Below, piece after piece: positions 1-39,852 of a DNA stretch of 64,000 nucleotides. Made by a program: the position numbers and the translations under genes. The notes beneath the pieces are model-generated. The model saw only the letters and a program-made list of their open reading frames with translations, was not told the DNA's origin and ran no database searches. The stretch's first letter is position 1. Each line of letters starts with the position of its first letter. Source of the stretch: a virus; IMG/VR virus record IMGVR_UViG_3300042691_044733, positions 62,980-126,979 of that record. One strand, given 5' to 3'.

Positions 1-1
1 G

Positions 2-844
2 TTGCTTACCTTCAGCAGTTTGACTTAATTCAAAGAAAAGATTTTCAAATAATACAGAATTTTGTAATTTAATACTTCTTACTAATGGATGTGCAAATTC
101 ATGGAATGCAATATCTTGTGTGATATTACTACCAACAAAATAAACTTTATCACCCACAAAAAATGCTTTTTCATTATTGTAGGTTTGTTTTCTTAATGAT
201 AAAACTTCTTTAGCTTGCTCTGGAGTTATAAATTCATACTCCACTCCAAATTTATTAGATAAAATACTTAAAAGGTTCTTTAAAAGACCATTTATTCCAG
301 CTGTATTATCTGCAAGTTCAGATGCTACATTAGAAGAATCTTCTATAAAAGAATATTGTTGATCATAATCTTCAAAGTCTCTGTAAAACAATACATCGTT
401 TGACATAATTTCAAATGGAGTATCTGTTGGTGTAGGCATAACTTCACCATCTACAATGTACTCATTTGCTTGTTTTTGTCTTAAAATATAATCTCTTTCA
501 GCTTGTTCTTTTAATACTTCTGATTCATGTTGCTTTATTAAATCCTCATCAAGTTCATTTAAGAGTTTGATCTGATTTGCAGAAGGTGCTATTTTAACAA
601 CTGTGTTTATACCTTCTATAGCAGTATAAGCAACATTACCAATTTTTTTAGGTCCATTGTTTATCTGTTTATTTATTTCTTGTGCTAATCTATACCCGTA
701 TCCTTTTGTTTGTTCACTTGTAAAGTTTCTATAAGGATTTTTTATAAATCTAATAACACTATCACTTCCATACTCAAACCAGGGTTTGTTGTTTAGAATT
801 TTTTCTATAGTGTTGTTTAATGTTCTATTGCAAAGTTGTCCCAT
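2..844 (-). CDS. N-terminal part of a giant virion cargo protein with a zincin-like HExxH motif (runs off the window)
   Basis: Not in the ORF track. ATG at 842-844, open to the window edge; translates MGQLCNRTLNN...DIAFHEFAHPLVRSI (HEFAH at 89-103). Starts 2 nt after the upstream gene's stop. Confidence 0.8.
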   Translation of the reverse strand, partial: MGQLCNRTLNNTIEKILNNKPWFEYGSDSVIRFIKNPYRNFTSEQTKGYGYRLAQEINKQINNGPKKIGNVAYTAIEGINTVVKIAPSANQIKLLNELDEDLIKQHESEVLKEQAERDYILRQKQANEYIVDGEVMPTPTDTPFEIMSNDVLFYRDFEDYDQQYSFIEDSSNVASELADNTAGINGLLKNLLSILSNKFGVEYEFITPEQAKEVLSLRKQTYNNEKAFFVGDKVYFVGSNITQDIAFHEFAHPLVRSIKLQNSVLFENLFFELSQTAEGKQ

Positions 845-846
845 AA

Positions 847-3111
847 TTATAATATACAACTAAAATCTTTTTGTTCTAAATCAGTTCTTATTCCTAAATC
901 ATCAGTATCTTCTTTCTGTTCTCCAAACTCATAAAGAGTTTTCATTTTAAAATCTCCAAATTTACTTTCATCATTTAAAATGGCTTGAAAAAAATCTTGA
1001 AATAATTCAATTCCAGTTCTAAGATCTTCAAAATTTTTACTATTTAAATTCTCTAAAACAGGAGTTCCAAAAAATTTCTCCATTATAGCATTAAAGAATT
1101 CTATAAGTTGTTCAATAATTGAAGAATGTTTTTTCTTTATACCTAATGTCTTTTCATATTTTTCTAAATGTTTTTGATATGCTTCTTTAAGTGCTGGTTC
1201 ATTTGCTACTAAAAAATCATACATTGGACGTAAGTAATCATGTTTTTCATCAACAATGAATATTTTATCTGGATCAAAATTAGGAGTTAATGTTAACATT
1301 ATTGTACCTACAAGATCAGGAAATATTTCAATTGTATCGTCTTGATTATAACCTCTAGAACCAACACCTTTAATTTGATAATTTTTAAAAGCATCAGTAG
1401 GATTAACAGCTAAATCTTTAATAAAATTATGAATATCAGCTCTTAATTTTGGATCATTTATATTTAAAGCATAATCAATACTATGACCTAATTCATGAGC
1501 AAACACATAATGAAAGTGATTTTTTCTCCCTCTCATTGTACTTTTAAAAGCTATCTCAAAAGGAGATTGCATTTCTTCATATGAAGCTAAATCTAAAGAT
1601 TCTAAAAAAGTGCTTGTAAGATATCTATGCAAACTATAAAGATTTGGATAGGTATCAAGAATATAATCTTCAATTTTAGAATGTGTTTCAACTAACAGTC
1701 TATTGAAATTTTCCATGTATTCTTTTGTAGGAAGTCCTTTTTTTTCTGTAGCATTATATATAAGAATTTCAATTAAATGACGTTTAACCATCATGAATGA
1801 ATCATCTTTTCTATAAACTTTATCAGTATTTTTATAGTAATGTTCTGCCATGTCAACTACAGAACTATTTAACTTTTTAATATCTTCTTTTGTTATTTCT
1901 AATTCTGGGTATGCTTTCATAAAATCATAAATAGCAACATTTAAAGACATGAATGAATTAGTTTGCTGAAGAAGTGAACCTTTTATTAATGATTTTATAG
2001 GATTTATTTTTTGAGCTGTTTTTCCGTCTCTAGAATTAATTTTATTACCATCTACTCTAAAAAATCCAGTAGCATCTTCAAGAATAATTAATCTTGCTAA
2101 GTGAGCATTTGGTAATTGTCTTAAAAGATTTAAAATAGCATCAAATTCTAAATCAGAATAATCTTTATGACTAAGTAAATTTTCTAAAAATGTTTTGATT
2201 AAATTATCCTTATCTTTTGGTTTATTCAATTTTTGAGCATCTTCTTTTAATTTATCAGCATAAGAATTAAAAAGATCTATTAAGTCTTGGTACTCATCAT
2301 CCGAAATATTTAAATTATCCTTTTTAAAAGTTTCGTTTTGAATTGTTGCATATAGAGATTTAATAGTATCAAGAGCACTTTTCATAAAAAAGCTGCTAAC
2401 TAATTTTTCAGAAACTATTCTTTCAGCAATCAGTATTCGTTGTTGTTTAAGTTTTTGGCGAACTAATTCTTTTTTTGATTTTTTATATTGTTCTTGTTTA
2501 ATTTTATTTTTTTCATCTCTTAATTCATGATAAGAAAGGATATCAATTTTAATTTTGAATATCATTTCTCCAGTGTCAATCCACATATATGTATTACCAT
2601 CTGATTCTTTTCTGATGATAGCCAGATTGGGTTTATCATTCAACAAAAATCCTTTTTCAGTTTCAGAAGGTAAACGTTTTCCTTGAGAAGATGTTACATA
2701 AGTTTCCCATTTTGTTTTTTCAGAATTAGTTAATACATAGGCATACCTGTCATTTATAAACTCTATCCCGAAATTAACTTTTAAAAAGTTTCTATATTTT
2801 TTAGACCTTGAGTTTGTTATAGTAGGATATGGATCTTTTTCGGCACCATATTCAAATAATTCTTCTACTCCTGGTTTTATTTGTGGTTGTGATTTTAATT
2901 CCTCCAAAGAGATATTAGTTTTGGAGAGCAAAGTGATATAAGTACTAGTTTCTAAATCTAATTTAGAAGGATAGTTATTCAACCCATTTCTAGATTGCCA
3001 CATTGCTATATCAGCAGCAAGAGATGAAATGTATGGTTCAGTAAAATTAGATCCATATAATTGTTTATATAGACTCTTGAAGTCTTTACTTGTTTTTAAT
3101 ACACAGTGCAT
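847..3111 (-). CDS. Virion cargo protein with zincin-like metallopeptidase motif
   Basis: ORF track 847..3120; ATG at 3111 (MHCVLK) fits better, 2 nt after the RNAP stop. FAHELGH motif at 1483-1497. Lies inside the cargo cluster. Confidence 0.65.
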   Translation of the reverse strand: MHCVLKTSKDFKSLYKQLYGSNFTEPYISSLAADIAMWQSRNGLNNYPSKLDLETSTYITLLSKTNISLEELKSQPQIKPGVEELFEYGAEKDPYPTITNSRSKKYRNFLKVNFGIEFINDRYAYVLTNSEKTKWETYVTSSQGKRLPSETEKGFLLNDKPNLAIIRKESDGNTYMWIDTGEMIFKIKIDILSYHELRDEKNKIKQEQYKKSKKELVRQKLKQQRILIAERIVSEKLVSSFFMKSALDTIKSLYATIQNETFKKDNLNISDDEYQDLIDLFNSYADKLKEDAQKLNKPKDKDNLIKTFLENLLSHKDYSDLEFDAILNLLRQLPNAHLARLIILEDATGFFRVDGNKINSRDGKTAQKINPIKSLIKGSLLQQTNSFMSLNVAIYDFMKAYPELEITKEDIKKLNSSVVDMAEHYYKNTDKVYRKDDSFMMVKRHLIEILIYNATEKKGLPTKEYMENFNRLLVETHSKIEDYILDTYPNLYSLHRYLTSTFLESLDLASYEEMQSPFEIAFKSTMRGRKNHFHYVFAHELGHSIDYALNINDPKLRADIHNFIKDLAVNPTDAFKNYQIKGVGSRGYNQDDTIEIFPDLVGTIMLTLTPNFDPDKIFIVDEKHDYLRPMYDFLVANEPALKEAYQKHLEKYEKTLGIKKKHSSIIEQLIEFFNAIMEKFFGTPVLENLNSKNFEDLRTGIELFQDFFQAILNDESKFGDFKMKTLYEFGEQKEDTDDLGIRTDLEQKDFSCIL

Positions 3112-3113
3112 AG

Positions 3114-6100
3114 TTAGCAATTTAAAATATTATCTTTTTTCTCCTGTGGAAAGCTATCCCAGATTTCTTGAGTGTACCCAATTTCTTTTAAGGTTTTACC
3201 TGAACGTACTTTTAGGTTATTTACATCATCAAAGATAGTGTTATTTACCTCACGATTTGTAGGAGTATCTTCTTTTTTTACAAGTTTTCCAAATTCACCT
3301 GAATTATAAAAATATGGATTAATAAACTGGAATTCTTCATACAGTCTTTTTGATAAGTACATGTAAGTTTTATACCCTGGGGCATCTGGAATTTTTGGTT
3401 GATTTAATAAACTCTCTGATCCAGTATAGCCAAGTAATGAGTTACCAACACCACGTTCATCAAATACTATGATTTTACCAACAGATTGTTCTTTTAATTT
3501 CATTATAGCATCCTCAATAAGTTTGATATTATCAGAGTAAGTTTCATCCGTCATTATATCTTCTATAGAGGAAACCAAAGCTCCTTTTTTAGTAGGTATC
3601 CCAAAAATATTTTCTGGGTTAATCATAGGCTTCTTAACCTCTTTATCCTTATTATTAATCTTTACAACTGTAACATCTATTGTTTCAGCTGCATTTCTTA
3701 AAACAGTGTTAGAGTAATTAGCACCCATGTAAGCAAGTTTATTTTTAGAACCTGGAATAAAATCATCATAAATGAACAATGCATTAGGTTGAGAAGCAAG
3801 AGTTATATTTACGTTGTCAATTAATGTTTTAATTGCAGGTGCAAATCTCTGTTTTGGTTGTGCTTTAACATTATCTGTTTTTGGAGTATAGAAGAATACT
3901 TTAGGTGAATAAACAGATCCATAAAAGAAACCTTTTGTTTTATCTTCTGCAAAATATTTTTTAATTCTTTTTCTTGCTTTGTTTACAATAGGTTGATCTG
4001 CATCTACATTCTCATTATTAGAAGCAACGGGTTCTTTATAAAGTTTAACAAAGAATGCTTTGTATTGATCTAAATATTTTTTAGATTCATTAGAACTGAG
4101 AATTCTTTCTGCTCTTCTTTTTATAGGTTCCATTAACATGTTCATTAAATCAGTATTAACAATTCTGTTAATTGCAAATGCCCCCATTCTATCTTGACCA
4201 GATTGATAAAATGCAAACATTGGAAACATATTAAATAACATACTTATTTTATCATTATCTATTTCATTCTCAACTTTCTTAACATTTGGATCTGCAAGTT
4301 TTATTAACTGTTCATGATAAATATTTGCTTTATCTGGAGTTAATTTATTTTCTGTAAATTTCAAATTTGTTATTGCTCCTGATCTAGAAGGTAATAATGT
4401 TTTAAGCAAGCTATATTCATCTGTTAATTCAGGATAATGAGAAATTACATCTACAACCTGATTTGCAAATCCTGTAGGACTATACATCATAGCAACAATA
4501 TTGAATTTACTTAATAATGCAAAGTCTCTAAGAAAATCTTCATAAAGATATCTTTCGGTACGTTTTTTAAATTCAGAGTCTGTTTCTCCTTTATTTTTTT
4601 CATACATTGAATCCAGCATTTTTACTTTCTTCTGATATTCTCTTGTTTCTTTAAACTTGGTAAAAGATATCTCAGAACGTAAAAATTCTCTTTCATAAAT
4701 GAATTTTACATACTCATTAAAGTTTCCTCTGAAAGGATCTAGGTTAATTTCAATAGGTGATAATCCTTTTGCTCTATAAGTTGGTTTACTATAGATCTGA
4801 TTTTTAAAATCTCTTTCAAGTCTTATTAAATCCACATATAGATTACCATCTTTTACAAATGCACCATTTTGTAATACAGTTTCGCTGATTACTTCTTTCT
4901 CTACAGGAGAATATTCTTTATTTGTAATTCTAAGTGACTTGTAAGGTTTTTTAGGATCAAATTCTATGTTATCAATGTATTCTTGGAAAGCATAAGATAA
5001 AAAGTCATTTCTTAATGCTTCTGCAAACTTTTCTTTTGTTTTCTCATCTGTACCAAAGAAAGCTCCAAATGTTTTAAGTGGATCCAATGACTCAACAGTT
5101 TCTTCAACAAACTCTACTAGTCTGGGATGGTTTCTAAGTTTAAAGAAATTACTCAAGAAATTAATTGCAAATCCTTGAACTTCAAAACTACCTATAGGAG
5201 AATTCAAATCAATACCTCTAACAATTTCATAAGGGAATCTTCTGTTATTAACAAGATCTATTTTCTTATCAAGTTTTTGTTTTGCTTCATACATGTTTGT
5301 TGATCTTGAAGTATCAAAGTTAGTATTCATTTTAATTTGAGTAACTGCTTTTGACATCTCTTCAATTTCAAGAAAATGTAAAAATACTTTTAAATCCTCT
5401 TCGGTCAGATTTCCATCAAACTCATCTAATCTTTTGTTGAGGTTCTCAAGTGTAAATACTTCTTTATCAAGTTCTTTATTTAAATTATTAGACAACAAGG
5501 TATTAAAAATTGTTCTACTTTGAGTATAGTTACTATCAAGTTTTTCAAGTCCTTTACCAAGTTGTTTTTGTACAATAGGATGAGATTTTAATACCATTGC
5601 TCTTGCTCTGGTTCTAAATTCTGTTCTTGGTATAACTCCAAGTCCAAGTGCTGGTGCAAATGTACTTTTGGTTAATTGCTGTTTTTTGAGATAATCTCTA
5701 ACCATTGGTTGGGATAATAAAGCAACTGCATGCTCTATAGGTACACCTGCTTGAAGCATAAACAACATAGAAGAGGTTAATTCTTTATTACCTTGAATAT
5801 CAAAGATCCACGCATCTTTAGCAACGTCAACCCAACCATTAATAAGCTGTCCTATTAAAGTTGAGATTTTGTTTTTCTTGTTTGTATCATAAAAATGAGA
5901 CAATGAAATATTACCATTTATTGTATTATGCGGTAGCAACATGGTTTGTTGTAAAGTATAATAACCAGATTTTTCTGTTCCTAGTGTAACTGTAGGTGAC
6001 ATGTAAGCACCAACCCTGTTAAATATTACGTTGTAGGTATTATCAACAGCACCTTGACCAAGAGTTGCTTTACCAACGTTATTTGAACTTTGTTTATATC

Positions 6101-9100
6101 TGTTATATCCTATTTCAAATATTCTTGTGCCTGCAATTACTTTTTTACTTCCTTGTTTATAAGCTTCTTTATTTCTAAAATTCTTATGTTGGTTGTATTC
6201 TCTATTGTACTTACCATACTTAGCAACGGAATCTTGTAACAAGAATGTTCCGTTTGGAGTAATTAATTCCAAGAAGTTAGTTGGTAATGATAAGATTTCT
6301 ACAATAGTATCTAATAAATTATTTTCAAGACCAGCTGCTGATCCAGAATCCATTTTAGATTGGATATCATCAATTTCTCTAACAATAGCCATATGTTCTT
6401 TTGCATAATCAAGTTTTCTCCAATTTGTTTCAGATATAACATTTTCAGTTAACTCAAATAATTGATTTTCAAGATGATACAAAGATTCATACAGATCATC
6501 AGTAACCTCTACATTAGAATCATTAACACTGTCAAGAATTTGATTTTTAAGAATTTTGATTTCTCTCTTCAATTCAGAAGCATCAAGTTTATAAAAATCA
6601 AAATCCTCATTGATCATAGTACGAATATCATCTTCGTACCTGTTTCTTACATTTTCAAGTTCTTGATATAAATTATTAAGTTGTGATCTTAATTCTTCTT
6701 TGTTTAAATTTTCATTCTCTTTAACATATTTAGTTTTTCTAACTCCTGTAATAGTCTTAGTAAGAGATGGAAAAATAAAATACATTTTATCAATATCAAA
6801 GTCAGAACCTGCTTTAGCAACAATCTCAGATGGAAGTACAACTATGTTACCTGCATTTTCAGGTAAGAATTCATAGACTTCAGCAAACTCCATAGAGTTT
6901 AATCCTTGTACAGGAATACGCACGCCACCAATTGTTATTAAATCTCTGTTTTCTTCAACCCATTCTGGATTACGTAATAAACTATTCAATGCCTCTAATC
7001 TTGTCATTGATCTGTATTTGCCATCTTCTGTAAGAGTTTTAATTTTTATCAAATCTTTTACAGCAGGATGATATAATAACTTTTTGAAATTACCTTGCAT
7101 TGCAATTTTTACTTTCATTGCTTTTGTTTTACCATCCTTTCCAGGATGATAAAAAGGTAATTCATTAGTACCATTGTAAAGCATTTGTTCTTCTTCAGTA
7201 GCTTTACGCATATTACCTTTTTCAAAACCTGCACCCGAAACCTGAATTAATGCTTCACCCCTTGTTTTTTGCCTAACAAGTCTTTTAAATACCATAGCAG
7301 TGAGTAGTCTTTCTATGTTCTCAGCATTAGGGTGAATACTTAAATCATTCTTTAATCCTCCTGTTACTGGATTGTAATCAATAAAATCAATTTCATGATC
7401 TGCAAGTTCTTGACGTGTAAGTTCTTTCTTAACAAAGTCAATAAAGTCTTTTGTAATTTTTGCATTACCTTCTTTATCATATGTTAAACCAGCTTCTTTC
7501 TCTAACTCACGTTTTTTGAAATCTGTTAAAATTCTAATCTGATTTTCATACTTAAGTGCTAAATCATAAAATGGAGTTGATTTATTCTCTTCTTTAGACC
7601 ATTCTGCATATCTCTCATCATTATCTGTAATGTGAGGTTTGTAATCAACAGGAACTCCATTCTCCATAAGTCCTTCTTCAATTAACTTTCTTAACTGAGT
7701 TGAGAATATAATTTTACCTTTGTAACTATCATGAGTTTCCAACTGATCTTTAAAGTATCTAAGGAATATTGAATTCTTGATAAAAGGTTCTGATTTTTCA
7801 AATGCTATCGATCCATCTGGATTATAAAACTTTTCTAATTTACCATTATTAGTGATAGTACTAACTTTACTTCCTGTTTGGAATAATGCATAATCTACTT
7901 TATTTTCCACAAGTTTATTATGAAGTTTTTCAAGAGTTGTTCCTTTTATTACATTAGGTACCAAAGGAAACAAACTGAACTTATGAAATCCAATTGCAGG
8001 TAAACCAACACTTGTTGCAAGTGGTCCCGCATATTGCATTTTCTTTACTGGAAAAAACTTTTTTATATCAATATGGTCGATATTTTCACCATTAATTATT
8101 TTGTGATATAGCTCATCTTGATAAGGACTCCATTTACCTAATGAAATTAACAAATCTCTATATGCATCAAAAGTTATCCAACCTTGAGCATCACCTTCTT
8201 TCATGTTAGAATATTCACCAAATATTGAAGCTGTATCTTTTTTAATTTCTTCTACTTCTTTTGCATTAGGTTCTTTACCAGTTCTTTCTTTAAATAATTT
8301 TTTTTGATTTTCAACAAATGCTTCTTCATAAATAGATCTGTAAATTGAGTTTCTTTTACTATCTGAAAAAACAACACTATCAAAAACATCACTAAAATCT
8401 TTTTTACTAGTTGGATTTCCAGTGTACCATTTACTTTGTGCATAGGTACCTTTAAAACCAGGTGTATTTAAAGCATGAATCATAGCATCATCAGTTCTAG
8501 GAATTGTCCCTGTTGCTGCAATACTAGAATTTCTTTTGTGGAATTCTTCTTTTAACATATTATATAAAGCAGGATCACCATAAAACATTGCTGTACTTTC
8601 ATATTTATGAACCCAGTCATTTACTACATAACCTGAGATTATACTATTGACAATGAATGAGTTAATGTCATCTATCTCACCTGATGCTTTAAGTTCTTCA
8701 AGATAAGAATAATTCATTTTCTTTCTGATTGAATGAACCAAGCTATTCATTAAAGCTTCATTTTGATAGAAACCCATTTTAACAAGATCTTCTTTATACT
8801 TATTGATTTGATCATTTAAGTACTCTTCAATCTCTTTTTGAATAGTTTCTCTCAAACTTGTATTTTCTTCTTTTTCAATTTCTCTTAAAAAATTTTCAGA
8901 TATATATTTATCAAGTAATTTTTGTTTAGTTTCTGGAGTTAGAATATCCTGAAAGATAATAAAATCATTACCTACGTTTTTATAAAGATTATCTCCTACT
9001 GTAACATCACCAGTTGGATCCCCATTATTGAGTCTATGAATTCTTTCAATCTCTGATGCAAGATACTTAACATATTGATTTACAACTGTATATGATAAGT

Positions 9101-12100: not shown

Positions 12101-13334
12101 CATTAAGTAATTCATATTCAACGAATTTATTATTCCTAAAGAACGTGTCAATAAATTGTTCAATTAAAGAACGGGATTCTGGTGTATCTCTGTCTCCATT
12201 TTCTAATTCAAAATTACCCAATAAAATATTTACAGCAGCATCTAGGAATTCTTGATCAGATTCTACTGGATTTGCAGCAAAACTTATTGACGCTCTATTA
12301 GCACCTCTAATAAAATTATTAGAAATAGTATTTATTTCTTGACCGCTTGCAGTTACAATTTTAATTCTTTTTACTTCTATGGGCAACTCTGATAAATCCT
12401 CAATTTGAGGATCACCAAGATTTCTTCTTATTGAGTTATTAGAAGGAATATATCCAGTACTTAAACCAATTATTTCTTGAGTAATTTGATTTTTAGGACT
12501 TGATAATATAAATTCTTTTTTCTTTTCAACTTCTTTTAATTCTTCTGCAAGAACTTCTTCTGCTTCTTCAATAGAGATATTTCTTGTTTTTGCAATTTCA
12601 GGAAGTGTTTGAATAGTTGCAGGATCAGATCTAAAAAAGAAATAAACATATTTACCAGAATCTGATTCTTTATAATCATTATCTAATAATACAGGTTCCC
12701 CCAGGTTATTAGTAACAACCTGAATTAATGCCTTATTATCAACTCCAGAAATTAATCCATTATTTTGACGAAGTGTTACATAAAAACCACTAAGGTCAGA
12801 AGTAGTTTTTTCATTATCAGCAAGATAATTTAAAAAATTATAACTATGTTCTCTACCAGGTTCTTCTGAATTTCCTGTAGTAGAAGCAAGTGTGTTAGGT
12901 CTTGCACTGAATACTTCAGGTAAAATCTTAGTTTTTGGTTCTGGTTTAGGTTCTACTTTAGGGACCTCTTTAATTGCTGATTCTTGTTTCTTGTTTAAAT
13001 CTAAAATTGTCTCAAGATTCTTGATATCATCATTAATACTTTTCTTTAACTGATATGCAGCAGGTAATGATTCAATAATCTTACCAGTTATTGTGTCATC
13101 TACACCAACAATATATTCTAGATATTGAGGGATTAATCCTGCATAAGTTAATGCAAGATCATATGCGTCAGGATTTTTCTTTTTATCAAAGTTATTCTTA
13201 ACGTCAGAATACATTTTTTTCATGTAACCAATCAAATTAAATGGTTGATTAGTATCATGAAGAACTCTTATATCACTTATAATTTTTTTAAGTAATCTAT
13301 ATTTTTGTTGGTCATCTAGTGCACAAAAAGCCAT
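3114..13334 (-). CDS. Virion-packaged DNA-dependent RNA polymerase (crAss-like, phi14:2 gp66 type) with N-terminal zincin domain
   Basis: 3406 aa. RIPVQGLNSM...LPSEIVAKAGSDFDIDKM two-barrel catalytic motif (DFDIDK at 6786-6803). HEAWH...EEFLAEEF zincin motif at 11349-11363. Confidence 0.93.
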   Translation of the reverse strand: MAFCALDDQQKYRLLKKIISDIRVLHDTNQPFNLIGYMKKMYSDVKNNFDKKKNPDAYDLALTYAGLIPQYLEYIVGVDDTITGKIIESLPAAYQLKKSINDDIKNLETILDLNKKQESAIKEVPKVEPKPEPKTKILPEVFSARPNTLASTTGNSEEPGREHSYNFLNYLADNEKTTSDLSGFYVTLRQNNGLISGVDNKALIQVVTNNLGEPVLLDNDYKESDSGKYVYFFFRSDPATIQTLPEIAKTRNISIEEAEEVLAEELKEVEKKKEFILSSPKNQITQEIIGLSTGYIPSNNSIRRNLGDPQIEDLSELPIEVKRIKIVTASGQEINTISNNFIRGANRASISFAANPVESDQEFLDAAVNILLGNFELENGDRDTPESRSLIEQFIDTFFRNNKFVEYELLNGVRTLIITTEKNSYTFSSYDKMTDEEKEQAKQIVKQALTTYTDKGIIKKHAYNILKASEHANGVPYFERVNDKLIVKPRMLSAQQYRKFLQNHTWTSMIPLEDGTFKEVNGYLIFKEIPEEQKQYVQSIKFKQVDENEPVVVPKPKTPGSRTTEDKRVNVNVGRKVDIKNIGKPKNKLKYQKESDVKATEEQIAKAKAWYLNHPLSKYVGFEEFFDLVNSENPNAAATASFAGITLFNGSDYSDLYHEAWHVFTGYFLSKKEKADLYNEVRNTKGTFTTHLGKIITFKDATDLEVEEFLAEEFRTFMLNGQKFKGEAPKRKTIFQKIFEILQILFSSASIEDVMSNSYVSSTVKTLFEQLSIGNLGNRNFDVNKSDFGVLNKIRPLSEEEEVSLDYAEAKLVIDSIDAIISQIIDEKNLENSTERYTTLLLGDIEYKAQLYDAVYLKLTEALANIYSALDDDSPKRIDRNKLLKRKHILETAIINFSGNHAREDNTVTKEDILEALRSGKGTIAYHMQRSKYVNFDDNFSIDDAEEQMKNTNKDSYAQKSGNEIAMKELASAEVLYTIRTLFKYKPDGSLVYNELGFPELVDFDTVWNKLQRNLEGIYNPIDQVEAITALSRQTKDNSLMQLLSKLGPVFLDFSTGTNLGQLSLWTNFANVIASKKIPLVQLTVNILQDEKGKYSGLEIKPGNAKLESSGILKIWETNFQQPDNMNPYIRKAKDDHKELGKKAKRTDANYLMLNKIIMSFEETYLYDPIHFLRALGMDIPFVPTINSGLRNNFGGFLSALMEKIKHYEKNGIKVTSISKLINDAYKGNTLATSFKQLLDLVYRYSDEYGGAMVSNAKGDPQYEYSLRSTISTMIDSVNKAQDFNSISEKRPDGLDPMVLFNPERNPFIKNLRSVERLFGKGYGKRVPKSRIELKNSSGISLTINDEFSGLGIASSEADEISYTLQNLYTMVIYGVSEGTRHSDKATTYLYRIVTEGSNHNFPIEEFVKPSYLSYTVVNQYVKYLASEIERIHRLNNGDPTGDVTVGDNLYKNVGNDFIIFQDILTPETKQKLLDKYISENFLREIEKEENTSLRETIQKEIEEYLNDQINKYKEDLVKMGFYQNEALMNSLVHSIRKKMNYSYLEELKASGEIDDINSFIVNSIISGYVVNDWVHKYESTAMFYGDPALYNMLKEEFHKRNSSIAATGTIPRTDDAMIHALNTPGFKGTYAQSKWYTGNPTSKKDFSDVFDSVVFSDSKRNSIYRSIYEEAFVENQKKLFKERTGKEPNAKEVEEIKKDTASIFGEYSNMKEGDAQGWITFDAYRDLLISLGKWSPYQDELYHKIINGENIDHIDIKKFFPVKKMQYAGPLATSVGLPAIGFHKFSLFPLVPNVIKGTTLEKLHNKLVENKVDYALFQTGSKVSTITNNGKLEKFYNPDGSIAFEKSEPFIKNSIFLRYFKDQLETHDSYKGKIIFSTQLRKLIEEGLMENGVPVDYKPHITDNDERYAEWSKEENKSTPFYDLALKYENQIRILTDFKKRELEKEAGLTYDKEGNAKITKDFIDFVKKELTRQELADHEIDFIDYNPVTGGLKNDLSIHPNAENIERLLTAMVFKRLVRQKTRGEALIQVSGAGFEKGNMRKATEEEQMLYNGTNELPFYHPGKDGKTKAMKVKIAMQGNFKKLLYHPAVKDLIKIKTLTEDGKYRSMTRLEALNSLLRNPEWVEENRDLITIGGVRIPVQGLNSMEFAEVYEFLPENAGNIVVLPSEIVAKAGSDFDIDKMYFIFPSLTKTITGVRKTKYVKENENLNKEELRSQLNNLYQELENVRNRYEDDIRTMINEDFDFYKLDASELKREIKILKNQILDSVNDSNVEVTDDLYESLYHLENQLFELTENVISETNWRKLDYAKEHMAIVREIDDIQSKMDSGSAAGLENNLLDTIVEILSLPTNFLELITPNGTFLLQDSVAKYGKYNREYNQHKNFRNKEAYKQGSKKVIAGTRIFEIGYNRYKQSSNNVGKATLGQGAVDNTYNVIFNRVGAYMSPTVTLGTEKSGYYTLQQTMLLPHNTINGNISLSHFYDTNKKNKISTLIGQLINGWVDVAKDAWIFDIQGNKELTSSMLFMLQAGVPIEHAVALLSQPMVRDYLKKQQLTKSTFAPALGLGVIPRTEFRTRARAMVLKSHPIVQKQLGKGLEKLDSNYTQSRTIFNTLLSNNLNKELDKEVFTLENLNKRLDEFDGNLTEEDLKVFLHFLEIEEMSKAVTQIKMNTNFDTSRSTNMYEAKQKLDKKIDLVNNRRFPYEIVRGIDLNSPIGSFEVQGFAINFLSNFFKLRNHPRLVEFVEETVESLDPLKTFGAFFGTDEKTKEKFAEALRNDFLSYAFQEYIDNIEFDPKKPYKSLRITNKEYSPVEKEVISETVLQNGAFVKDGNLYVDLIRLERDFKNQIYSKPTYRAKGLSPIEINLDPFRGNFNEYVKFIYEREFLRSEISFTKFKETREYQKKVKMLDSMYEKNKGETDSEFKKRTERYLYEDFLRDFALLSKFNIVAMMYSPTGFANQVVDVISHYPELTDEYSLLKTLLPSRSGAITNLKFTENKLTPDKANIYHEQLIKLADPNVKKVENEIDNDKISMLFNMFPMFAFYQSGQDRMGAFAINRIVNTDLMNMLMEPIKRRAERILSSNESKKYLDQYKAFFVKLYKEPVASNNENVDADQPIVNKARKRIKKYFAEDKTKGFFYGSVYSPKVFFYTPKTDNVKAQPKQRFAPAIKTLIDNVNITLASQPNALFIYDDFIPGSKNKLAYMGANYSNTVLRNAAETIDVTVVKINNKDKEVKKPMINPENIFGIPTKKGALVSSIEDIMTDETYSDNIKLIEDAIMKLKEQSVGKIIVFDERGVGNSLLGYTGSESLLNQPKIPDAPGYKTYMYLSKRLYEEFQFINPYFYNSGEFGKLVKKEDTPTNREVNNTIFDDVNNLKVRSGKTLKEIGYTQEIWDSFPQEKKDNILNC

Positions 13335-13344
13335 AATATATTTT

Positions 13345-16300
13345 TTAGCAATTAGGGTCTATTCCTTTAAAGAACTCATCATCCACATCGAGAGAGTCTG
13401 TACTTGTTACATCTGTAAATGCTTGCTTAGCAGCATCTTTCATTGCTTGATCAGAACTCATATCAATTACAGTATTAACATTGCCAGTTGGTCCATCTGG
13501 AGTTGGTGGTTTTGGATTAATCATATCATCTATTAAAGTTTCTAAAGCATTAAACTGAGGATGATTTTTAACATCTTCATTTTGTTTAACTAACTCATCA
13601 AGTTTATTTTTTGCAATCTTAGCAATTTCTGCAATACTCATTGGTACTTTTTTATTTTCTTCTAATGTATAAAAATCAGATACATAAATTGGAGATATAC
13701 TTATTGGCATTAAAGCAAGCATTATCTCCATAATTTTATCTGCATTTTTTAAAGTATCAACTTTAGGAGATACCTTAGAATCTTCCGTTAATATATTATA
13801 CAAAGGTTCTTGCAAATATAATACATTATCTACTTCCTTGTTAGCATTTTTTTCTACTTTATCATAAACGTTTTTAATGTATTTTTTGTTTAATAGGTTT
13901 TGAATCTGAGTAGTATTTGATTCTTCGTCAGTGTAATCCAATATAATAGTGGATTTATCGGGTGCTACAACCACATCCGCGCTATCATGATAGAACCAGT
14001 TTGTTGTGATTATAGTCTGACCTATTTCTTTTAAATAGTTAACCTCATCTTTTATTTGCTCAAGTATTTCTTTATATTCTGCATTAGTATCCTGTGATTG
14101 AGATAAAGAATAAAAATAAGAACCAACTTGACTTGAGTCCATGTCTTCTATAGAAGAATGCCCGTAGGATAAAAGTACATTTCTTAAAATATCATCTACA
14201 TTTACAACATCGTAATCTTGATAAATTAAATCAGGAATTGTTCCAGGTACTACATAAATAAGTTTACCTTTAAGTTTTGCGGGTACTTGTTTTTTAGGTG
14301 TCGGTCTTTCTGACTGTTCACTCTCATCTTCCTCAGTATCCGATTCAATTGGACTTAATTGACTCATCTCAGTTGCAGTAAGTTTTGCAACAGGTAAGAA
14401 TTTAAGTGCTCCTTTTTCTGTTTTTGCAGGTTTAATTGAAAGTAATGATCCTGAAATTATACCTTCTTTCTTATTTTGTTTGTTTACTTTTTCAGTAATC
14501 TGAAGAGGGAATATCTTGATTTCATCAATTTCAAATCCTGTTAAGTCTTTAAACAACTTAGCATAGATATTCAATTGAATAGCATCTTCTTCTTTTAATG
14601 AAGAATTGCCAGTCATATACTCAACCTCTCTATTTTTTACTGAAGTTTTAATATCTATGATTGAGAATTTACCTTCTTTCTCAACCAAGATGTCCATAGT
14701 ACCAGCAGTATTGAATCCGTTAATTTCACCCCATAAAGTTGTAATATCACCATACACGTTATAATCTTTCAGTGCAACAGCAAGATCATAGATTATATCT
14801 GACAACTGATCAGAGAAACTATCTGTAATTTTTTCAAATACATTAACACCATTTATTTTATAAGATGGTGATAATGAGGCATTTGTAATATAAGTTGCTT
14901 TTATTATTGGTGCAAGAATACTTTGTACAAATGTTCTTTTATCAAATTGATCAAAACTTCCTTGAATTTGTTTTAAAATTGAAACTCCTTCAGCATCTTG
15001 ATATAATACCTGTCTAAAGATTTCATCAATAAAGTTACCTCTAATAGTTTGAAAACTATCTTCCGAAACCTGATTTTTAGAGTTAGGTTTAAATCTTGTT
15101 ACTCTATGGTATTTAAGACTACTTATTTTTGCTTTACCTGAATTTTCAATTTCAACATAATACTTTCCATTTTCAGTTTCTGGAATAGCTGCTGAAGAAG
15201 AAAGAAGTTTTTCTCTAAGTTTTTTTCTAACTTCTTCAATCATTTCTTGTGATTGCTCACTTACAGATTTTACAGGTACCTGATTTAGTTTATCAAGTGG
15301 ATCTGAAATTTCTGTATCTTGTGTTGGTTGAGTATTTGCAGTAGCTGGTTTAGGTTCTGGTTTTTCCTGTACAGGATTTTCCATATTATACTTATCAATA
15401 ATTGATTGTGCAATAGGGTTATCCTTCATCCACTCTTCTATAGATGGGTCGCCACCTTGTTCCATAGCTTTTCTATGTTCTTGAATCAGAAGTGTTTGTA
15501 AGCCAACAGGATATGTTTTTAACAAAGGAGTTGTTTCAGTGCCTTGAGGTTTAACTTCTTGGGTTTCTTCTGTTGTTGTTTCTTGTTTTGCTGTAAAGGT
15601 TGGTTTATTTTTTAATTTCTCTCCAATCAATTCTTCATAAGCATCAAATAACTCAAGTATTTTTTTGAATGTTTCTGAATCTTTTGCTACCTCGTTACCA
15701 TCTTTATCAATAAACTTATTTGGGAACATTCTGAAATTTTTTAATCTATAAAGATTAGCATCATCAAAATAAACATCCAACTTAGCAATATCTTGAATTA
15801 ACTGATTTGTTTTATTGTTTACTTTAAATCTTTCTAATGCATTACGGCTAATTTGTACTTTATTTTTTTCATACTTTAAAGTAATGTCACTAATTCTCTT
15901 AGCCATTTTTAACAATGAACCTGGGTCAGCAAGTATATTTATATTTTGAGCCTGAAACTTTGCACCTACATCAAGTTTTAAAAAGTCAATGTAATCATTA
16001 ATACTTTCATCAACAAGATCTGTAATAGGAAATACATTTTTTAAATTTGCAATTGATTTTAAGTATTGCATGTAGTTATCACGTACAACTTCATGAAGGT
16101 GTGCTTCAACAACTGCATTAAGATCAACTGAATCATCTACGTCTTCACCCTCTGCATCAAACATTGAGAGTTGACTATTCTCATCCATAATTTGAACATT
16201 CATCAAATTATTTTTTCTAGCATACTCTTTTACTGCTTGTTTATATTTTGGGTTATTATGTGATCTTGTTAATGCATCCATAACACCAGAAAACTCTAAA

Positions 16301-18756
16301 GCAGCTTCTTTCAAACCTTCTAGTTTATCTAAAAAAGTACTCTTTTTATTAAACTCAGATGTATTACCTTCAGCTTCTAAAATTTCAATTTCTGATTTTG
16401 TTGTTTCAATTAAAGATCTTAATTGATTAACATCATATAATGCAGTGAACAAAGATGAATCAGCATCTCTTACAGGTACATTAGTTGATGCTTTAGCGGC
16501 AAGGTCTTTTGCTCTTTTAAGCATTCTATCAAAACTGTACTCTCCATAAACTGACATCATTTTAGCATGCTCAAATGCTTTGTAATTATTCAGTTCTTCT
16601 ATGTAAGCATCTGGGTTCTTTTTCTTGTCTATATAACCAGGATTAAAAGGATTTGTTATGGCATCTGCTTTTTTCATCCTTGATTTTATATCCTCAGCTT
16701 TCTTTATAGCATTATCAATCTTAGACATAATATCTGGAGAGTTACCAAACATTTCTGATAACTCTTTTGGATCAGTTTGTTTAAGATCTTTTAATTGATC
16801 TACAAATAAGTCATATTTACCATTTTTAATTAATGTAAAAACATGCATAAAGAGTGAATCATCTTTAGCATTTTTTTCTCCATTAATATCTCCATTTGCA
16901 GCATTTTCCTGAACATTTGCAGAAAAGTCACGTTGTGTTTTAACATTAGTATCCAACCAGTTAACATAATCGTATGGTCTTTCCTCTAAAGAATTCATAG
17001 ATTTAACTAATTCATCCATTTGTTCTTTTTGAGATTTTACATAATCATCATAAGTAGTAGTTTTATTCTTGTAGTCATTAAACTTCATTTGAAGAAGACT
17101 ACCTGTATTAGATATATAATTACTTACTGCTTGAATAGGTCCTCCCATTAAAAATCCTGACATAAATACATCAAGACCTTGCATGCTCATTTGTTCACCA
17201 AAACCTTTCTTGAGTGCTTCCATGTAAGTATTTTTTGCAGCAATATTAGGATCACCATATAATTCTGCATAATACTGATTCAAGTAATAATCAATATTTG
17301 TTTTTTGAATACCTTCTTGATAAACTTCTTGAAGACCTTCAACTAAATTAGCTTGTAAATATTTTAAACTTTTAAGTGCAGCGGGTAAAGGTTTGTTTTT
17401 TAAAGCGTCCCAGGTACCTTTTCCAAAAGACTTTAAATAATCTTTTGTGAACATTCCTTTCTTAAACATTCCTTTTTCAATTACTGAATAAGGAGTTTTA
17501 CCAGCGGCTTTCCATCCTGAGTTTTTAACTATTTTATAGAAAGAATTTTGAGCACCCAACCTCATCAATCTTTTGTCAATTGGTTTAAATAGACCATCAA
17601 ATACTATTTTATTAGAATAGTAGATTGCAGGAATATTACCAATTACTGTTGCAGCAGCTGCTTTTTTACCACGTTGATAAATATCATCAAGTTCATTTTG
17701 TGAAATTTCTTTACTAGGGTTTGCTTTTTTCCATTCTTCAACTGCTTGATTTACAAAATCATTTTGAGCAAAACCACCCTCAAGAGTTGACTCTGAAAGA
17801 ACTGCATTTAACTGACGCATATCATAATAGAATGCAGTTCCTGTTTTAAATGTTTTAGCAAAAGTACTCAACCTATTTTCTGCTGTCCCAGCAGTAAGAG
17901 CTTTTTTAACAAATGATCCTGCATTGTCAAAAGGATTAAATAATGCATTTGCCCCTGTTTGAAGTGATTTATAAAACATTTTTGCTTTATTAGGATCCTT
18001 AAATGATCTAACTAACTTAGCTAATGATTTAGATAAACCAGCAACATTTTGTCCAGTTCTTACAGCAGCAAGTTCACTAGTACCACCAAATGTTGCAGCT
18101 GTAATTGCACCTAATGCAATTTCTTCTGCTGCCATTTCAAGTACCATACCTATAGTATATGCACTATTAGCAACAAAGTTAGTTGCCCAAGCACCTGCAC
18201 CTTTTCTATTACTTGTTGCAATAGAAAGTCTTTCTTCCATTAAAGATGCACCTTCAGTATTTGGACTGAAATCTCCAGTAAGTAAATCACCCCAACTCTT
18301 AAAGTTATCATACATTGCACCACCAGCAAGACCCCAAAATTGAGTTCCCATTCTACGTGCATCATCTAGAAATGTAGATCTAGAAGTATATTCACTTTCA
18401 TTATCATTATAAATACTGAATCCTAAATTTTTAAACTTAGGATGATTATAGTATCTATTAAAATTATAACCAAATCTACTACCATCAAAACTTGTAACTT
18501 TTGATCTACGTAATGGATCACTATAAGTTGCAACTTTTGCTTGAAGATTTGCAAATAAATCTTTAGTCAATCCTTTTGAATCAACAGGTTGTGTAAATAC
18601 ATTACCAGCACCATCCTGAGCATTTTGTACTACAGGACTATGTTGTCTAAATTGTGCATCTAGCTTTGGTAAGTTTTGATCAAAAAATTGGTTTATCTGA
18701 TCTAGTTTTGCATCAATTATATTAGGATCTAAATTATTTGCTTTGGGGTTTTCCAT
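13345..18756 (-). CDS. Giant ejected virion protein with hydrophobic Ala/Gly segments and a PD-(D/E)xK nuclease domain
   Basis: 1803 aa. Hydrophobic stretch ANSAYTIGMVLEMAAEEIALGAITAATFGG. AGTMDIL..IIDIKTS..QLNIY RecB-family motifs. Adjacent to the vRNAP as in crAss-like phages. Confidence 0.75.
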   Translation of the reverse strand: MENPKANNLDPNIIDAKLDQINQFFDQNLPKLDAQFRQHSPVVQNAQDGAGNVFTQPVDSKGLTKDLFANLQAKVATYSDPLRRSKVTSFDGSRFGYNFNRYYNHPKFKNLGFSIYNDNESEYTSRSTFLDDARRMGTQFWGLAGGAMYDNFKSWGDLLTGDFSPNTEGASLMEERLSIATSNRKGAGAWATNFVANSAYTIGMVLEMAAEEIALGAITAATFGGTSELAAVRTGQNVAGLSKSLAKLVRSFKDPNKAKMFYKSLQTGANALFNPFDNAGSFVKKALTAGTAENRLSTFAKTFKTGTAFYYDMRQLNAVLSESTLEGGFAQNDFVNQAVEEWKKANPSKEISQNELDDIYQRGKKAAAATVIGNIPAIYYSNKIVFDGLFKPIDKRLMRLGAQNSFYKIVKNSGWKAAGKTPYSVIEKGMFKKGMFTKDYLKSFGKGTWDALKNKPLPAALKSLKYLQANLVEGLQEVYQEGIQKTNIDYYLNQYYAELYGDPNIAAKNTYMEALKKGFGEQMSMQGLDVFMSGFLMGGPIQAVSNYISNTGSLLQMKFNDYKNKTTTYDDYVKSQKEQMDELVKSMNSLEERPYDYVNWLDTNVKTQRDFSANVQENAANGDINGEKNAKDDSLFMHVFTLIKNGKYDLFVDQLKDLKQTDPKELSEMFGNSPDIMSKIDNAIKKAEDIKSRMKKADAITNPFNPGYIDKKKNPDAYIEELNNYKAFEHAKMMSVYGEYSFDRMLKRAKDLAAKASTNVPVRDADSSLFTALYDVNQLRSLIETTKSEIEILEAEGNTSEFNKKSTFLDKLEGLKEAALEFSGVMDALTRSHNNPKYKQAVKEYARKNNLMNVQIMDENSQLSMFDAEGEDVDDSVDLNAVVEAHLHEVVRDNYMQYLKSIANLKNVFPITDLVDESINDYIDFLKLDVGAKFQAQNINILADPGSLLKMAKRISDITLKYEKNKVQISRNALERFKVNNKTNQLIQDIAKLDVYFDDANLYRLKNFRMFPNKFIDKDGNEVAKDSETFKKILELFDAYEELIGEKLKNKPTFTAKQETTTEETQEVKPQGTETTPLLKTYPVGLQTLLIQEHRKAMEQGGDPSIEEWMKDNPIAQSIIDKYNMENPVQEKPEPKPATANTQPTQDTEISDPLDKLNQVPVKSVSEQSQEMIEEVRKKLREKLLSSSAAIPETENGKYYVEIENSGKAKISSLKYHRVTRFKPNSKNQVSEDSFQTIRGNFIDEIFRQVLYQDAEGVSILKQIQGSFDQFDKRTFVQSILAPIIKATYITNASLSPSYKINGVNVFEKITDSFSDQLSDIIYDLAVALKDYNVYGDITTLWGEINGFNTAGTMDILVEKEGKFSIIDIKTSVKNREVEYMTGNSSLKEEDAIQLNIYAKLFKDLTGFEIDEIKIFPLQITEKVNKQNKKEGIISGSLLSIKPAKTEKGALKFLPVAKLTATEMSQLSPIESDTEEDESEQSERPTPKKQVPAKLKGKLIYVVPGTIPDLIYQDYDVVNVDDILRNVLLSYGHSSIEDMDSSQVGSYFYSLSQSQDTNAEYKEILEQIKDEVNYLKEIGQTIITTNWFYHDSADVVVAPDKSTIILDYTDEESNTTQIQNLLNKKYIKNVYDKVEKNANKEVDNVLYLQEPLYNILTEDSKVSPKVDTLKNADKIMEIMLALMPISISPIYVSDFYTLEENKKVPMSIAEIAKIAKNKLDELVKQNEDVKNHPQFNALETLIDDMINPKPPTPDGPTGNVNTVIDMSSDQAMKDAAKQAFTDVTSTDSLDVDDEFFKGIDPNC

Positions 18757-21700: not shown

Positions 21701-21880
21701 ACTCTCATCATGTGCTAAAGGAGAATAGAGTAATGACCCATACATTTTACTAAGTTGGTCATAACCAGAATCATATCTTGCCTGCTTGGTAGACAAAGCT
21801 TGATTTAAAAAATCCATGTCTGGTTGAAATACTGCAATTTCTGGGATAAAATCTCCAGATTGATCTAAATAATTTGCCAT
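18734..21880 (-). CDS. Virion internal/cargo protein
   Basis: 1048 aa helical protein at the head of the cargo operon; function inferred from position. Confidence 0.6.
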   Translation of the reverse strand: MANYLDQSGDFIPEIAVFQPDMDFLNQALSTKQARYDSGYDQLSKMYGSLLYSPLAHDESIRRRDDFFKKIDDDIKKVSALDFSKRENVELAGKVFDPIINDKYIIKDMAFVKSAQKAMEEADYYKNCMDSAKCGDKYWEGGVRAIHYQLDDFSKSRYSDILGFQNPTYVKGRNISKEALKFAKDMGFQMENLTFDPSGRYRIKTTNGVAAIPALSDVFLSTFGNDQGAIEYYKTQAYLNRKDYIAANASMVGEQKAEEMYFDSVLKSIPAIADQLIQEQSIKLNQADTSEKAVGSLLKTMDPETRTAKELAEALSQLTQDKKVLESNVNFYDKTKGLVNQELISSMDPKSLRMRIDSSVGNMLLSTDLVKSAQNYAQLTQKIDIKADEYALAGFEHGLRLKEISARGDEDRRTIEYKTKMELLSESFKGYGFGDGSGDTPMQLGASQGGAAVQPDAFNTDFKEQVKLSDGAVMQTDALHKQFVTEARTILNLPTDTYYNGVKVTEDVKTALRTQLKDIYGSSGDFVAEEEDSYEKPEPIKYPAVFKQEGEGLFGLSDEDVYNAASMGLSSLFKTITGWGDELLNNEPDYKKTKRTVTKQNGYLNDDYSLIDLKNETSYTDPNNQRNYRVLYDKVNHVLNEDPTMKTLFSGSAALQIAKNNATGVVKMLQDNEIKNQHNIQAAQKLAYAKFKNEKELTAFDKQVLSQYVSDKGMMSKQEFLNMYAKHPGIGKSQPIPGTFGMANVRLDVDDALARGEELYEDYSLMFSKVYNRDPSAGVKFDNYIAPVMGYNASGNFYEANPIAWMGVNSASPNSWGYKATVDTYNDVFKALNDNTKSDKVKVVFGDAGGMAGKGGTYEELEHNQNALLAVRGLLEQRGTKENAAMWDIKAYPIAVNDINKKAITITLGSGIKDKLDGTSKSPGVMPGGENSITIFMDNDVISDNNSAFSSTKNGPFATEYNSRGSVNIDFGKYGAGSLVKQSDGSMVMSGYVNVFDEKGNPTPNYFPPVVKPNPGAGEVDMAANELMNMFNAYMNQIQFIDGKPQSK

Positions 21881-36213: not shown

Positions 36214-36243
36214 AGTATTAATTTAATGAATATAAATATAATT

Positions 36244-37011
36244 TCAAAGTGGATTGTTGTTTATTTTCTGATAATCAACTAATTCCTTTTCTACCCATAA
36301 TTTTAAAAGATCTTGATAATCACAATAGTTGTTTATACCATAAGCTTTTTCAAGATATAAATTATAATAATTTGTTGAAAACTTTTCTGTTGTTTCAATA
36401 TAACATTGTTCATCTAAAGAAATTGTAAAATCTTTTACAGGTTCCGAAATTGTTCTTGTTATGACAACAGGTTTTTCAACACAACATTCACAATCATCAT
36501 ATCTTTCAGTAATTGTTACAGTAACTAATTCAGCATCCTCAAGTGCTACATTTTGATCAATAAAAATTGAATAACATTCATCTGGGTATTCTTCAATTTT
36601 TATAATACCTCCTTGATATAAAGTTAAATCATTTGTTACTATTAATACTGTATCAGGAGAAATTACAAAAGGTCTTTGTTCAGTGTCAATATTTGCCTTA
36701 CAGTTTATTAAGAAATTTAAAGGAGGTAAAATTTCTTCACAACTTAAATTCTCAACAAATTCAATGTTTGCAATAACAGCTGATCCCATATTCTGAAAAC
36801 ACTGTTGACAAAATTCATCTGTAGGAGGAGCATTACAAGTAGATTGAACAACATAGATATCTTCAGGATAATTTGCTAAGTCATTCATTCTTACTGTAGC
36901 ACCTATCGCACTAAGCCAAAAATTCTGGTATTCAGAACTATTACCAGGTCTGACATATCTATAAGTATCTGTTAAACAATTATATAGTGGTACGCAAATA
37001 GCTTGTGCCAT
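36244..37011 (-). CDS. Cys-rich structural protein
   Basis: 255 aa. Contains the same Cys module as the upstream gene (..TNDLTLYQGGIIKIEEYPDECY..YDDCECC). Confidence 0.55.
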   Translation of the reverse strand: MAQAICVPLYNCLTDTYRYVRPGNSSEYQNFWLSAIGATVRMNDLANYPEDIYVVQSTCNAPPTDEFCQQCFQNMGSAVIANIEFVENLSCEEILPPLNFLINCKANIDTEQRPFVISPDTVLIVTNDLTLYQGGIIKIEEYPDECYSIFIDQNVALEDAELVTVTITERYDDCECCVEKPVVITRTISEPVKDFTISLDEQCYIETTEKFSTNYYNLYLEKAYGINNYCDYQDLLKLWVEKELVDYQKINNNPL

Positions 37012-37013
37012 AG

Positions 37014-39268: not shown

Positions 39269-39285
39269 AATTTATTGGTTTTTAA

Positions 39286-39840: not shown

Positions 39841-39852
39841 ATGCTCTAAAAT

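Follow-up and report, generated by a model that had tools for sequence, protein, structure and literature searches.

Paired cysteines at the facing termini of RNA-polymerase cargo proteins in crAss-like phages, and a possible head-to-tail ejection chain

We analyzed a 64,000-nucleotide stretch of the viral genome IMGVR_UViG_3300042691_044733 (bases 62980-126979 of 126,979 bp; hereafter "the window"), in which four consecutive giant genes encode proteins related to the virion RNA-polymerase cargo of crAss-like phages. These proteins are almost devoid of cysteine (Cys), except at the termini that face each other in the order of transcription, where a Cys next to the C-terminus of one product is matched by a Cys next to the N-terminus of the following one. 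The terminal-Cys observation is real and far beyond chance, and the pairing rule, in which a C-terminal Cys faces the N-terminal Cys of the next product, is strongly supported by its conservation in 67 lineages of Crassvirales. The best explanation is that selection has removed Cys from the chain proteins, sparing one residue 3-7 positions from the N-terminus or 1-8 positions from the C-terminus at those ends that face the next member.

Cys positions were computed from translations of the window and of the whole genome. All large open reading frames (ORFs) of the window are carried by the minus strand, and the chain proteins, termed here A, B, X and D (Table 1), follow in transcription order the pattern A-C / C-B-C / C-X-C / C-D. 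Their 6,243 residues encoded within the window contain six Cys, each no more than five residues from a terminus, and no others. A first-pass annotation of this DNA had listed the same residues by eye with their coordinates, had noticed no further Cys in about 6200 residues, and had pointed out that the first member (1803 amino acids) lacks an N-terminal Cys; the computation bears it out in every one of these particulars. D is the product of the final gene of the block, which runs beyond the window (G000, 58031-63823) and encodes 1930 residues; besides Cys5 the protein has a single internal Cys (Cys1221), and its C-terminus has none. In the four full-length proteins (7,893 residues), 6 of the 7 Cys are therefore located within five residues of facing termini; with random placement of seven Cys, at least six would come to lie no more than 8 residues from a terminus with a probability of about 2e-12. 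The baseline is provided by the 102 other ORFs of the genome that encode at least 100 amino acids: their Cys frequency is 1.47%, three of them have a Cys among the first 8 residues, six among the last 8, and none at both ends. Megablast of positions 1-20000 of the window against phages gave no match.

Table 1. Chain members and other Cys-bearing features of the window (window coordinates)
Feature	Position	Strand	Cysteines and remarks
Chain member 1 (A), 1803 aa	13345-18756	minus	Only Cys is residue 1803, the last (codon 13348-13350); no N-terminal Cys
Chain member 2 (B), 3406 aa	3114-13334	minus	Cys4 (13323-13325) and Cys3406, the last residue (3117-3119)
Chain member 3 (X), 754 aa	847-3111	minus	Cys3 (3103-3105) and Cys752 of 754 (856-858)
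Chain member 4 (D), first 281 residues	1-844 (ATG 842-844)	minus	Starts MGQLC; Cys5 at 830-832
1048-aa protein upstream of the chain, not a member	18734-21880	minus	Close pair 128/134, no other Cys
570-aa protein	23895-25607		Cys-poor; only pair 165/168
Five consecutive ORFs	34747-41202	minus	3-5% Cys; no PHROG match; tail by position only
704-aa ORF	37014-39128		Ends DCSCCKNKKCN
184-aa ORF	39286-39840		Ends LACGCGCSSCK
Major head protein homolog, 542 aa	43787-45415		0 Cys
Portal, 922 aa	47332-50100		One Cys

The sequence of B matches Protein Data Bank (PDB) entry 6vr4, the DNA-dependent RNA polymerase of the phi14:2 virion (gp66; E-value 3.8e-23), and contains the DxDxD motif of two-barrel polymerases as DFDID at residues 2178-2182, with D2178, D2180 and D2182 invariant in 12 homologs. 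Among the invariant columns are also H658 and E659 of its HEAWH motif (658-662); this zincin-like YHEAWH (residues 657-662), invariant in 12 polymerase homologs, lies about 1,500 residues upstream of DFDID, and D has an HExxH of its own at position 248, so the block seemingly bears two metalloprotease-like motifs. Jackhmmer relates A to gp47 of crAss001 (local set; domain E-values 7e-53 and 1e-36), and D to crAss001 gp49 (3.9e-112) and to phi14:2 gp76, a 1421-residue protein with a zincin motif (6.6e-105). Pfam and PHROGs returned almost no matches for the four chain proteins, and the PDB sequence search returned none for A or D. A weak PD-(D/E)XK nuclease-like stretch is discernible in A at residues 1339-1426 (phrog_298, exonuclease, E-value 4e-9), and scores 16.7 bits against Pfam PDDEXK_1, under the cut-off of 22. 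These homologies identify the four genes as the RNA-polymerase-associated cargo block known from crAss-like phages, enlarged by one member (X). According to the available portions of the respective publications, crAss001 gp47, gp49 and gp50 were detected in virions by mass spectrometry, were placed in the cargo zone of the capsid and are thought to cross the tail partly unfolded (PMC10172136), the cargo proteins of phi14:2 are stated to be packaged in the virion (bioRxiv 10.1101/2020.03.07.982082), and some relatives encode the RNA-polymerase cargo as one fused polyprotein. Judging from homology and from the position of the genes at the end of the structural gene block, the proteins of the phage studied here are probably also packaged and ejected.

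For a census of related loci we used the best 80 of 488 confirmed matches of a profile search of IMG/VR, which is therefore a sample; they correspond to 76 loci and, together with phi14:2 and the window, make up 78 loci (labeled below with L) in 67 clusters at 70% identity. Junctions were counted on the 67 representatives wherever the genes are adjacent and both facing proteins are complete. Cys is present on both sides of the junction in 119 cases and on neither side in 132, compared with six junctions in which only the upstream C-terminus has it and eight in which only the downstream N-terminus does, so that the pairing of facing ends by gene order, which the first-pass annotation had proposed from the window, holds for the sampled lineages with 14 discordant junctions. 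Terminal enrichment in orthologous cargo, put forward for testing at the same time, is equally evident: the 161 complete chain proteins, 395,313 residues in all, contain 236 Cys, of which 217 are terminal and 19 internal. The N-terminal Cys always occupies position 3-7 (n=124) and the C-terminal Cys is 1-8 residues from the end (n=121).

Comparison with more distant proteins gave the same picture. In all 11 database homologs of B (23-36% identity; 2,930-5,009 residues) Cys occurs among the last 7 residues, in 6 of them also among the first 8, and the number of other Cys is 0 to 4; two of the five without the N-terminal Cys (P0005 and P0010) are A+B fusions. Cys4 of B is one of seven invariant columns in 11 N-terminal sequences that share 15-30% identity, and the sequence around the C-terminal Cys of A is poorly conserved (its last 300 residues matched one other protein only). 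In phi14:2 the only Cys of the 1797-residue protein is its last residue, the 2180-residue protein has Cys3 and Cys2179, and the 1421-residue protein has Cys3 only. In crAss001, Cys2339, third from the end, is the sole Cys of gp47; gp50 has three (Cys5, an internal one, and Cys2404 nine residues from the end), and gp49 has Cys5 only. These two sets of proteins are homologous to those of the window and show the same terminal-Cys pattern, the difference being that the chain of the window has four members instead of three, owing to the 754-residue X. The gene for gp47 lies on the strand opposite to those for gp50 and gp49, and the partners are not neighboring genes; thus, the pattern belongs to the proteins and is not an artefact of DNA or of translation junctions. 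The rule is also kept by gp45 (Cys second from the end) and gp44 (Cys3) of p-crAssphage and by gp32/gp33 of both crAss002 and FpV4; in p-crAssphage and crAss002, B and D are fused in one protein. In crAss002 (L082, NC_055828.1), the annotated start of gp33 (locus 11301) puts the first Cys at residue 35, and the in-frame Met33 gives MSC..., as in p-crAssphage gp44. The terminal-Cys rule suggests, on sequence grounds, that the true start of gp33 is 32 codons downstream of the annotated one.

The rule is best supported by the behavior of the Cys pair when genes split or fuse. Every gene split that we examined bears the Cys pair, and the colinear fused forms have no Cys at that position. For instance, the 583- and 1852-residue proteins of L040 correspond to a 2352-residue protein of L004 with Cys at 4 and 1647, the 396- and 2232-residue proteins of L054 to a 2563-residue protein of L024 with Cys at 3, and B together with a 468-residue protein of L064 to a 4700-residue protein of L033 with Cys at 5 and 4698; in L025, A itself is split. 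In the A+B fusions both junction Cys are gone. The HE[AGS][WFY]H motif is found 1,764-2,261 residues from the start in B-type proteins without the N-terminal Cys, compared with 216-1,506 residues in those that have it. The extra N-terminal part was found by iterated jackhmmer to be homologous to the A family, including the 1803-residue protein of the window, in L059, P0010 and P0005; direct phmmer searches with eight A proteins against five fused proteins gave no match. In L051, L066/L069 and L070/L057 the A+B fusion is deduced only from length and motif offset. On a FastTree phylogeny of the B core (61 rows), which has long branches (L002 and L021 joined) and gives approximate change counts for this reason, the fused or split state of A/B requires at least three changes and the presence of an extra member at least seven, several of these between sister lineages.

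Extra small members (165-209 residues in L025, L028, L062, L068 and L075) contain exactly two Cys, both terminal. Inserted ORFs lacking this two-terminal pattern hold internal Cys and look like unrelated insertions. Such small ORFs of 118-229 residues with internal Cys occur between members in L030 (17436-17792), L054 (19171-19764), L057 (11711-13050) and L063 (10024-10641), and two of them have KGSC near the start; they break the adjacency of the flanking giants and not their pairing, and are probably inserted selfish genes. Regarding X, a full-library search revealed matches to residues 66-660 of P0016, a D-type protein of 2,524 residues with an N-terminal Cys only (E-value 4.8e-12), and to a 2,201-residue protein, with an E-value of 3.2e-59 for P0013; the first ~70 residues of X match P0017 and P0018 (231 and 453 residues), each of which has Cys4 and a Cys near the C-terminus. 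Relatives of X were found in none of the 78 loci by blastp, phmmer or jackhmmer, and none in a relative-locus search with X alone. These matches identify X as the counterpart of the N-terminal part of the longer D proteins found elsewhere.

The ends of the chain require a separate comment. In our script a chain counted as complete if it began with a member without N-terminal Cys and finished with one without C-terminal Cys; 38 chains were seen end to end by this definition, three with two members, 30 with three and five with four. These 38 chains cannot test the end rule, because they are defined by those very ends. Independent support for it comes from the junction table and from the listing of architectures in the 78 loci, where no N-terminal Cys is found in the first member of any chain with a visible upstream ORF, with the exception of L063, in which no A gene is visible, and where a C-terminal Cys is absent from the last giant member throughout. 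The number of visible members per chain varies from 2 to 5, the longest being that of L025, whose first member is truncated.

To our best reading of the literature two elements of this picture are in print already, namely the suppression of Cys in N4-like phages and one terminal disulfide pair in cyanophage A-4L. In the pre-ejectosome of A-4L (Cyanopodophage A4, Saffermanviridae), a disulfide between Cys1715 of gp27 and Cys5 of gp26 was seen by cryo-electron microscopy; as far as the available text of the article goes, the bond is treated as a local stabilizer of a pentameric ring, where a cleft of gp26 accommodates the C-terminal helix of gp27, and neither a general terminal-Cys rule nor a link to gene fission or fusion is stated (PMC12002296, PNAS 2025). 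We found in the A-4L genome that Cys1715 is the only Cys of the 1717-residue gp27 and Cys5 the only Cys of the 1114-residue gp26, and that the two genes are adjacent. The rule is thus the same as in the window, i.e. a sole or nearly sole Cys at the upstream C-terminus and the downstream N-terminus in the order of transcription, although the A-4L pair has two members only and includes no RNA polymerase, and the phage belongs to another family and has a much smaller genome. The first-pass annotation knew of no such system; the two-member gp27-gp26 pair shows that one had been described, and for Crassvirales the statement stands, as the literature search found no description of the terminal-Cys rule in articles proper (the supplements, which were outside its scope, may hold tables of Cys or disulfides). 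The rule therefore appears to be undescribed for this order. In the available part of the phi14:2 polymerase preprint the words cysteine, Cys and disulfide have 0 occurrences (bioRxiv 10.1101/2020.03.07.982082).

The annotation's remark that Cys avoidance is known for the N4 virion RNA polymerase is confirmed by a publication on the ejection operon of Schitoviridae (N4 gp50, DEV gp71-gp73), where, in the portion available, the suppression of Cys is explained by passage through the envelope without stray disulfides; homologs of gp71 contain 0.00075% Cys, and the few Cys in homologs of gp72 are treated as probable errors (PMC11445570). The likeness to the crAss-like cargo consists in a giant virion RNA polymerase and co-ejected proteins that are nearly free of Cys, so that internal depletion is common to both. 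In contrast, Schitoviridae have essentially no Cys, hence no terminal pairs and no chain, whereas the terminal Cys of the crAss-like cargo are present and conserved. The N4 polymerase is of the single-subunit type and unrelated to the two-barrel enzyme of crAss-like phages.

Taken as a whole, the interpretation offered by the first-pass annotation, an ordered covalent train of ejected proteins, is partly supported. We envisage that the C-terminal tail of each member would dock on the N-terminal part of the next one and that, once the particle is outside the reducing cytoplasm, the facing Cys would form a disulfide between the two proteins, as seen in A-4L. The separate polypeptides could then act as one head-to-tail unit of ~7,900 residues, like the fused polypeptides of their relatives; the basis for this equivalence is the observed colinearity with the fused forms and the loss of the Cys pair on fusion. 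A direct link between the facing ends, most likely a disulfide as the simplest kind of link, is in our judgment the probable outcome of these steps, and by analogy with A-4L a disulfide bond is likely in crassvirus virions. The subsequent steps, in which the unit would stay together inside the capsid and then travel, partly unfolded and in a fixed order, by way of the portal and tail, and in which the host cytoplasm would reduce the links and let the members separate, are put forward tentatively, and threading in order with reductive release, taken alone, is something we would sooner doubt than assume. No match to thioredoxin or glutaredoxin was found in the genome. Links at the extreme ends would keep the unit nearly linear, which is why it could be held together and passed through the tail in order. 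Internal Cys would be selected against, since a disulfide formed there by accident would prevent the protein from unfolding and passing, as has been argued in print for the ejection proteins of N4-like phages; we infer that a unit which must be nearly linear to be threaded would need both links at the very termini and the almost complete loss of Cys elsewhere.

Docking was addressed by co-folding a C-terminal piece of A (300 residues) with an N-terminal piece of B (500 residues), using alignments of our own (one of them with only 2 rows), as had been suggested for adjacent terminal peptides. The A/B pair scored 0.53 compared with 0.00 for the best of three controls, at least 18% of contacts were common to the runs, and the partners had a predicted local distance difference test (pLDDT) value of at least 49. 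The mark used for this score is reached by 58 of 80 solved complexes and by 2 of 110 mismatched pairs, and among those that reach it the scores up to 0.60 belong to 7 of the 80 solved complexes and to both passing mismatches.

Several rival explanations have to be weighed against a direct link that holds the members in a string. The disulfides might form and yet be static, locking the folded cargo or a pre-ejectosome inside the capsid, with no single covalent string and with links that may break or become reduced before or during exit. We regard this as unlikely. The only solved example, A-4L, speaks for it, since there the bond stabilizes a folded pentameric ring (PMC12002296, in its available part), as do the prediction that the crAss001 cargo is folded and alpha-helical in the cargo zone of the capsid (PMC10172136, likewise) and the weak co-fold support for docking of the tail of A on the head of B; however, a purely stabilizing bond would have no need of a position so close to the chain ends (at most 8 residues away in all 245 terminal cases), would not demand a purge of the other Cys that leaves 19 internal residues in the whole set of complete proteins, and does not account for the equivalence with genetically fused polypeptides, which fits a linear unit. 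The chance that the facing Cys are joined through a shared metal ion or some other thiol-based link is slim. Such a link would suit assembly in a reducing cytoplasm and hosts many of which are anaerobes, and other Cys-poor proteins of the block have close pairs that resemble half metal sites (CxxxxxC at 128/134, CxxC at 165/168), but two thiols per junction are too few for the usual tetrahedral site, no conserved His or Cys neighbors are seen in the terminal contexts listed, and the link in the A-4L structure is a disulfide, a type of bond present in crAss001 virions as well.

Slimmer still is the chance that the terminal Cys form homodimers, or anchor the cargo to Cys-rich structural proteins instead of to the neighboring cargo. 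The genome has Cys-rich ORFs with Cys-rich C-terminal tails adjoining the block, and disulfides in the tail and the portal vertex of crAss001 are known (PMC10172136, available part), yet this arrangement predicts neither the bare ends of the chains (78 loci, with L063 as the single exception) nor the joint gain of the facing Cys at splits and their joint loss at fusions, and the partner in A-4L is the product of the neighboring gene. Finally, it is hardly credible that the pattern is a by-product without any link, be it of shared ancestry, of relaxed termini in proteins purged of Cys, or of a nucleotide signal at the junctions. Termini are in general less constrained than cores, and the first two junctions of the window share AATTGCTAA, but we rejected this sequence as a nucleotide signal, given that the rule in crAss001 holds for partners on opposite strands and that the contexts differ among loci. 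Moreover, the Cys is invariant where the surrounding residues diverge, new pairs arose at no fewer than seven independent splits (by the approximate counts on the tree), the other ORFs of the genome have terminal Cys at the low baseline given above, and the termini at chain ends have none. Intramolecular N-to-C cyclization of the middle members was set aside in view of the single Cys of each end member and of the intermolecular nature of the A-4L bond.

There are a number of observations that weigh against the direct link, or against the generality of the rule. Phages assemble in a reducing cytoplasm and many of the hosts are anaerobes, and disulfides observed in purified virions could arise during aerobic handling. 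The support from the A/B co-fold is weak, and no interface was returned. Jackhmmer searches with A-4L gp26-gp29 against all crAss-like proteins of the local set yielded self-hits only, and the A-4L precedent is an analogy only, because it has no detectable homology to the crAss-like cargo. The disulfides reported for crAss001 virions are located in tail, ring and gp57 proteins; no density was resolved for gp47, gp49 and gp50, and their cysteines go unmentioned in the available part of that article (PMC10172136). The Fisher P-value of the junction table, 6e-57, is no true probability because the loci are related, and the N-terminal positions hang on the choice of the first ATG as the start codon; in crAss002 gp33, Cys35 is near-N-terminal only if the downstream Met is the start. 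The discordant junctions among the 67 representatives have diverse origins: small ORFs, either inserted between members or lying next to them, account for eight (L030, L057, L063), L078 contributes an A protein whose Cys stands 19 residues away from its C-terminus, L062 and L069 a 5'-truncated upstream protein that ends with ...WKC or ...KKC and is followed by a protein lacking the N-terminal Cys, and the three others involve small Cys-bearing ORFs outside the chain (L037, L077, L030). The unpaired last-residue Cys upstream of the cargo block in L062 and L069 falls outside what the chain rule explains. The 19 internal Cys of the complete chain proteins also have to be counted here, as do the seven internal Cys of p-crAssphage gp44 and the six of crAss002 gp33, which indicate that Cys depletion is looser in the last protein of these two phages.

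Crassvirales outnumber all other phages in the human gut, and the rule bears on how they pack and deliver an RNA-polymerase cargo of ~700 kDa or more. It tells from sequence which ends touch and so provides a directly testable model of the order and linkage of the cargo; it flags chain members, including small ones of 165-750 residues that have no other annotation, separates inserted selfish genes from cargo, and can correct start codons, e.g. that of crAss002 gp33. If the linkage is as proposed, evolution can swap a peptide bond for a terminal disulfide when a giant gene splits. A bolder version, which we consider doubtful, is that the cargo is one functional megaprotein of ~6,000-10,000 residues in which peptide bonds are exchangeable for terminal disulfides at almost any domain boundary, that it is threaded from N to C in the order of the gene products, and that reduction both frees the members and switches on an otherwise auto-inhibited RNA polymerase. 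Were this true, chaining by terminal Cys would, together with A-4L, be a design principle that applies to podophage ejection proteins in general and arose by convergence, and would provide a sequence-only predictor of ejected proteins, their order and their true start codons.

Other Cys patterns are found in the neighborhood of the chain. The 1048-residue protein encoded upstream of it has relatives with the same close pair at 128/134 in L004, L006, L028, L064 and L067 and at 127/133 in L030; no such close pair is present in the relatives from L007, L008, L011, L040 and L056. Pairs similar to this one and to that of the Cys-poor 570-residue protein occur in crAss001 gp45 (390/398), phi14:2 gp80 (369/378) and A-4L gp28 (1036/1039), and could be small local loops or metal half-sites. 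The five consecutive Cys-rich ORFs, within whose range lie those with the Cys-studded C-terminal tails (Table 1), may be disulfide-cross-linked tail parts, as in crAss001. The first-pass annotation had called the neighboring tail and capsid proteins very Cys-rich, which for the tail depends on an assignment by gene position only and is wrong for the capsid: the homolog of the major head protein is free of Cys, and the portal has a single one. The two ORFs that follow the major head protein (199 and 392 residues; the three together span 43787-47232) also contain 0 Cys, and therefore the depletion of Cys reaches the head proteins as well as the cargo.

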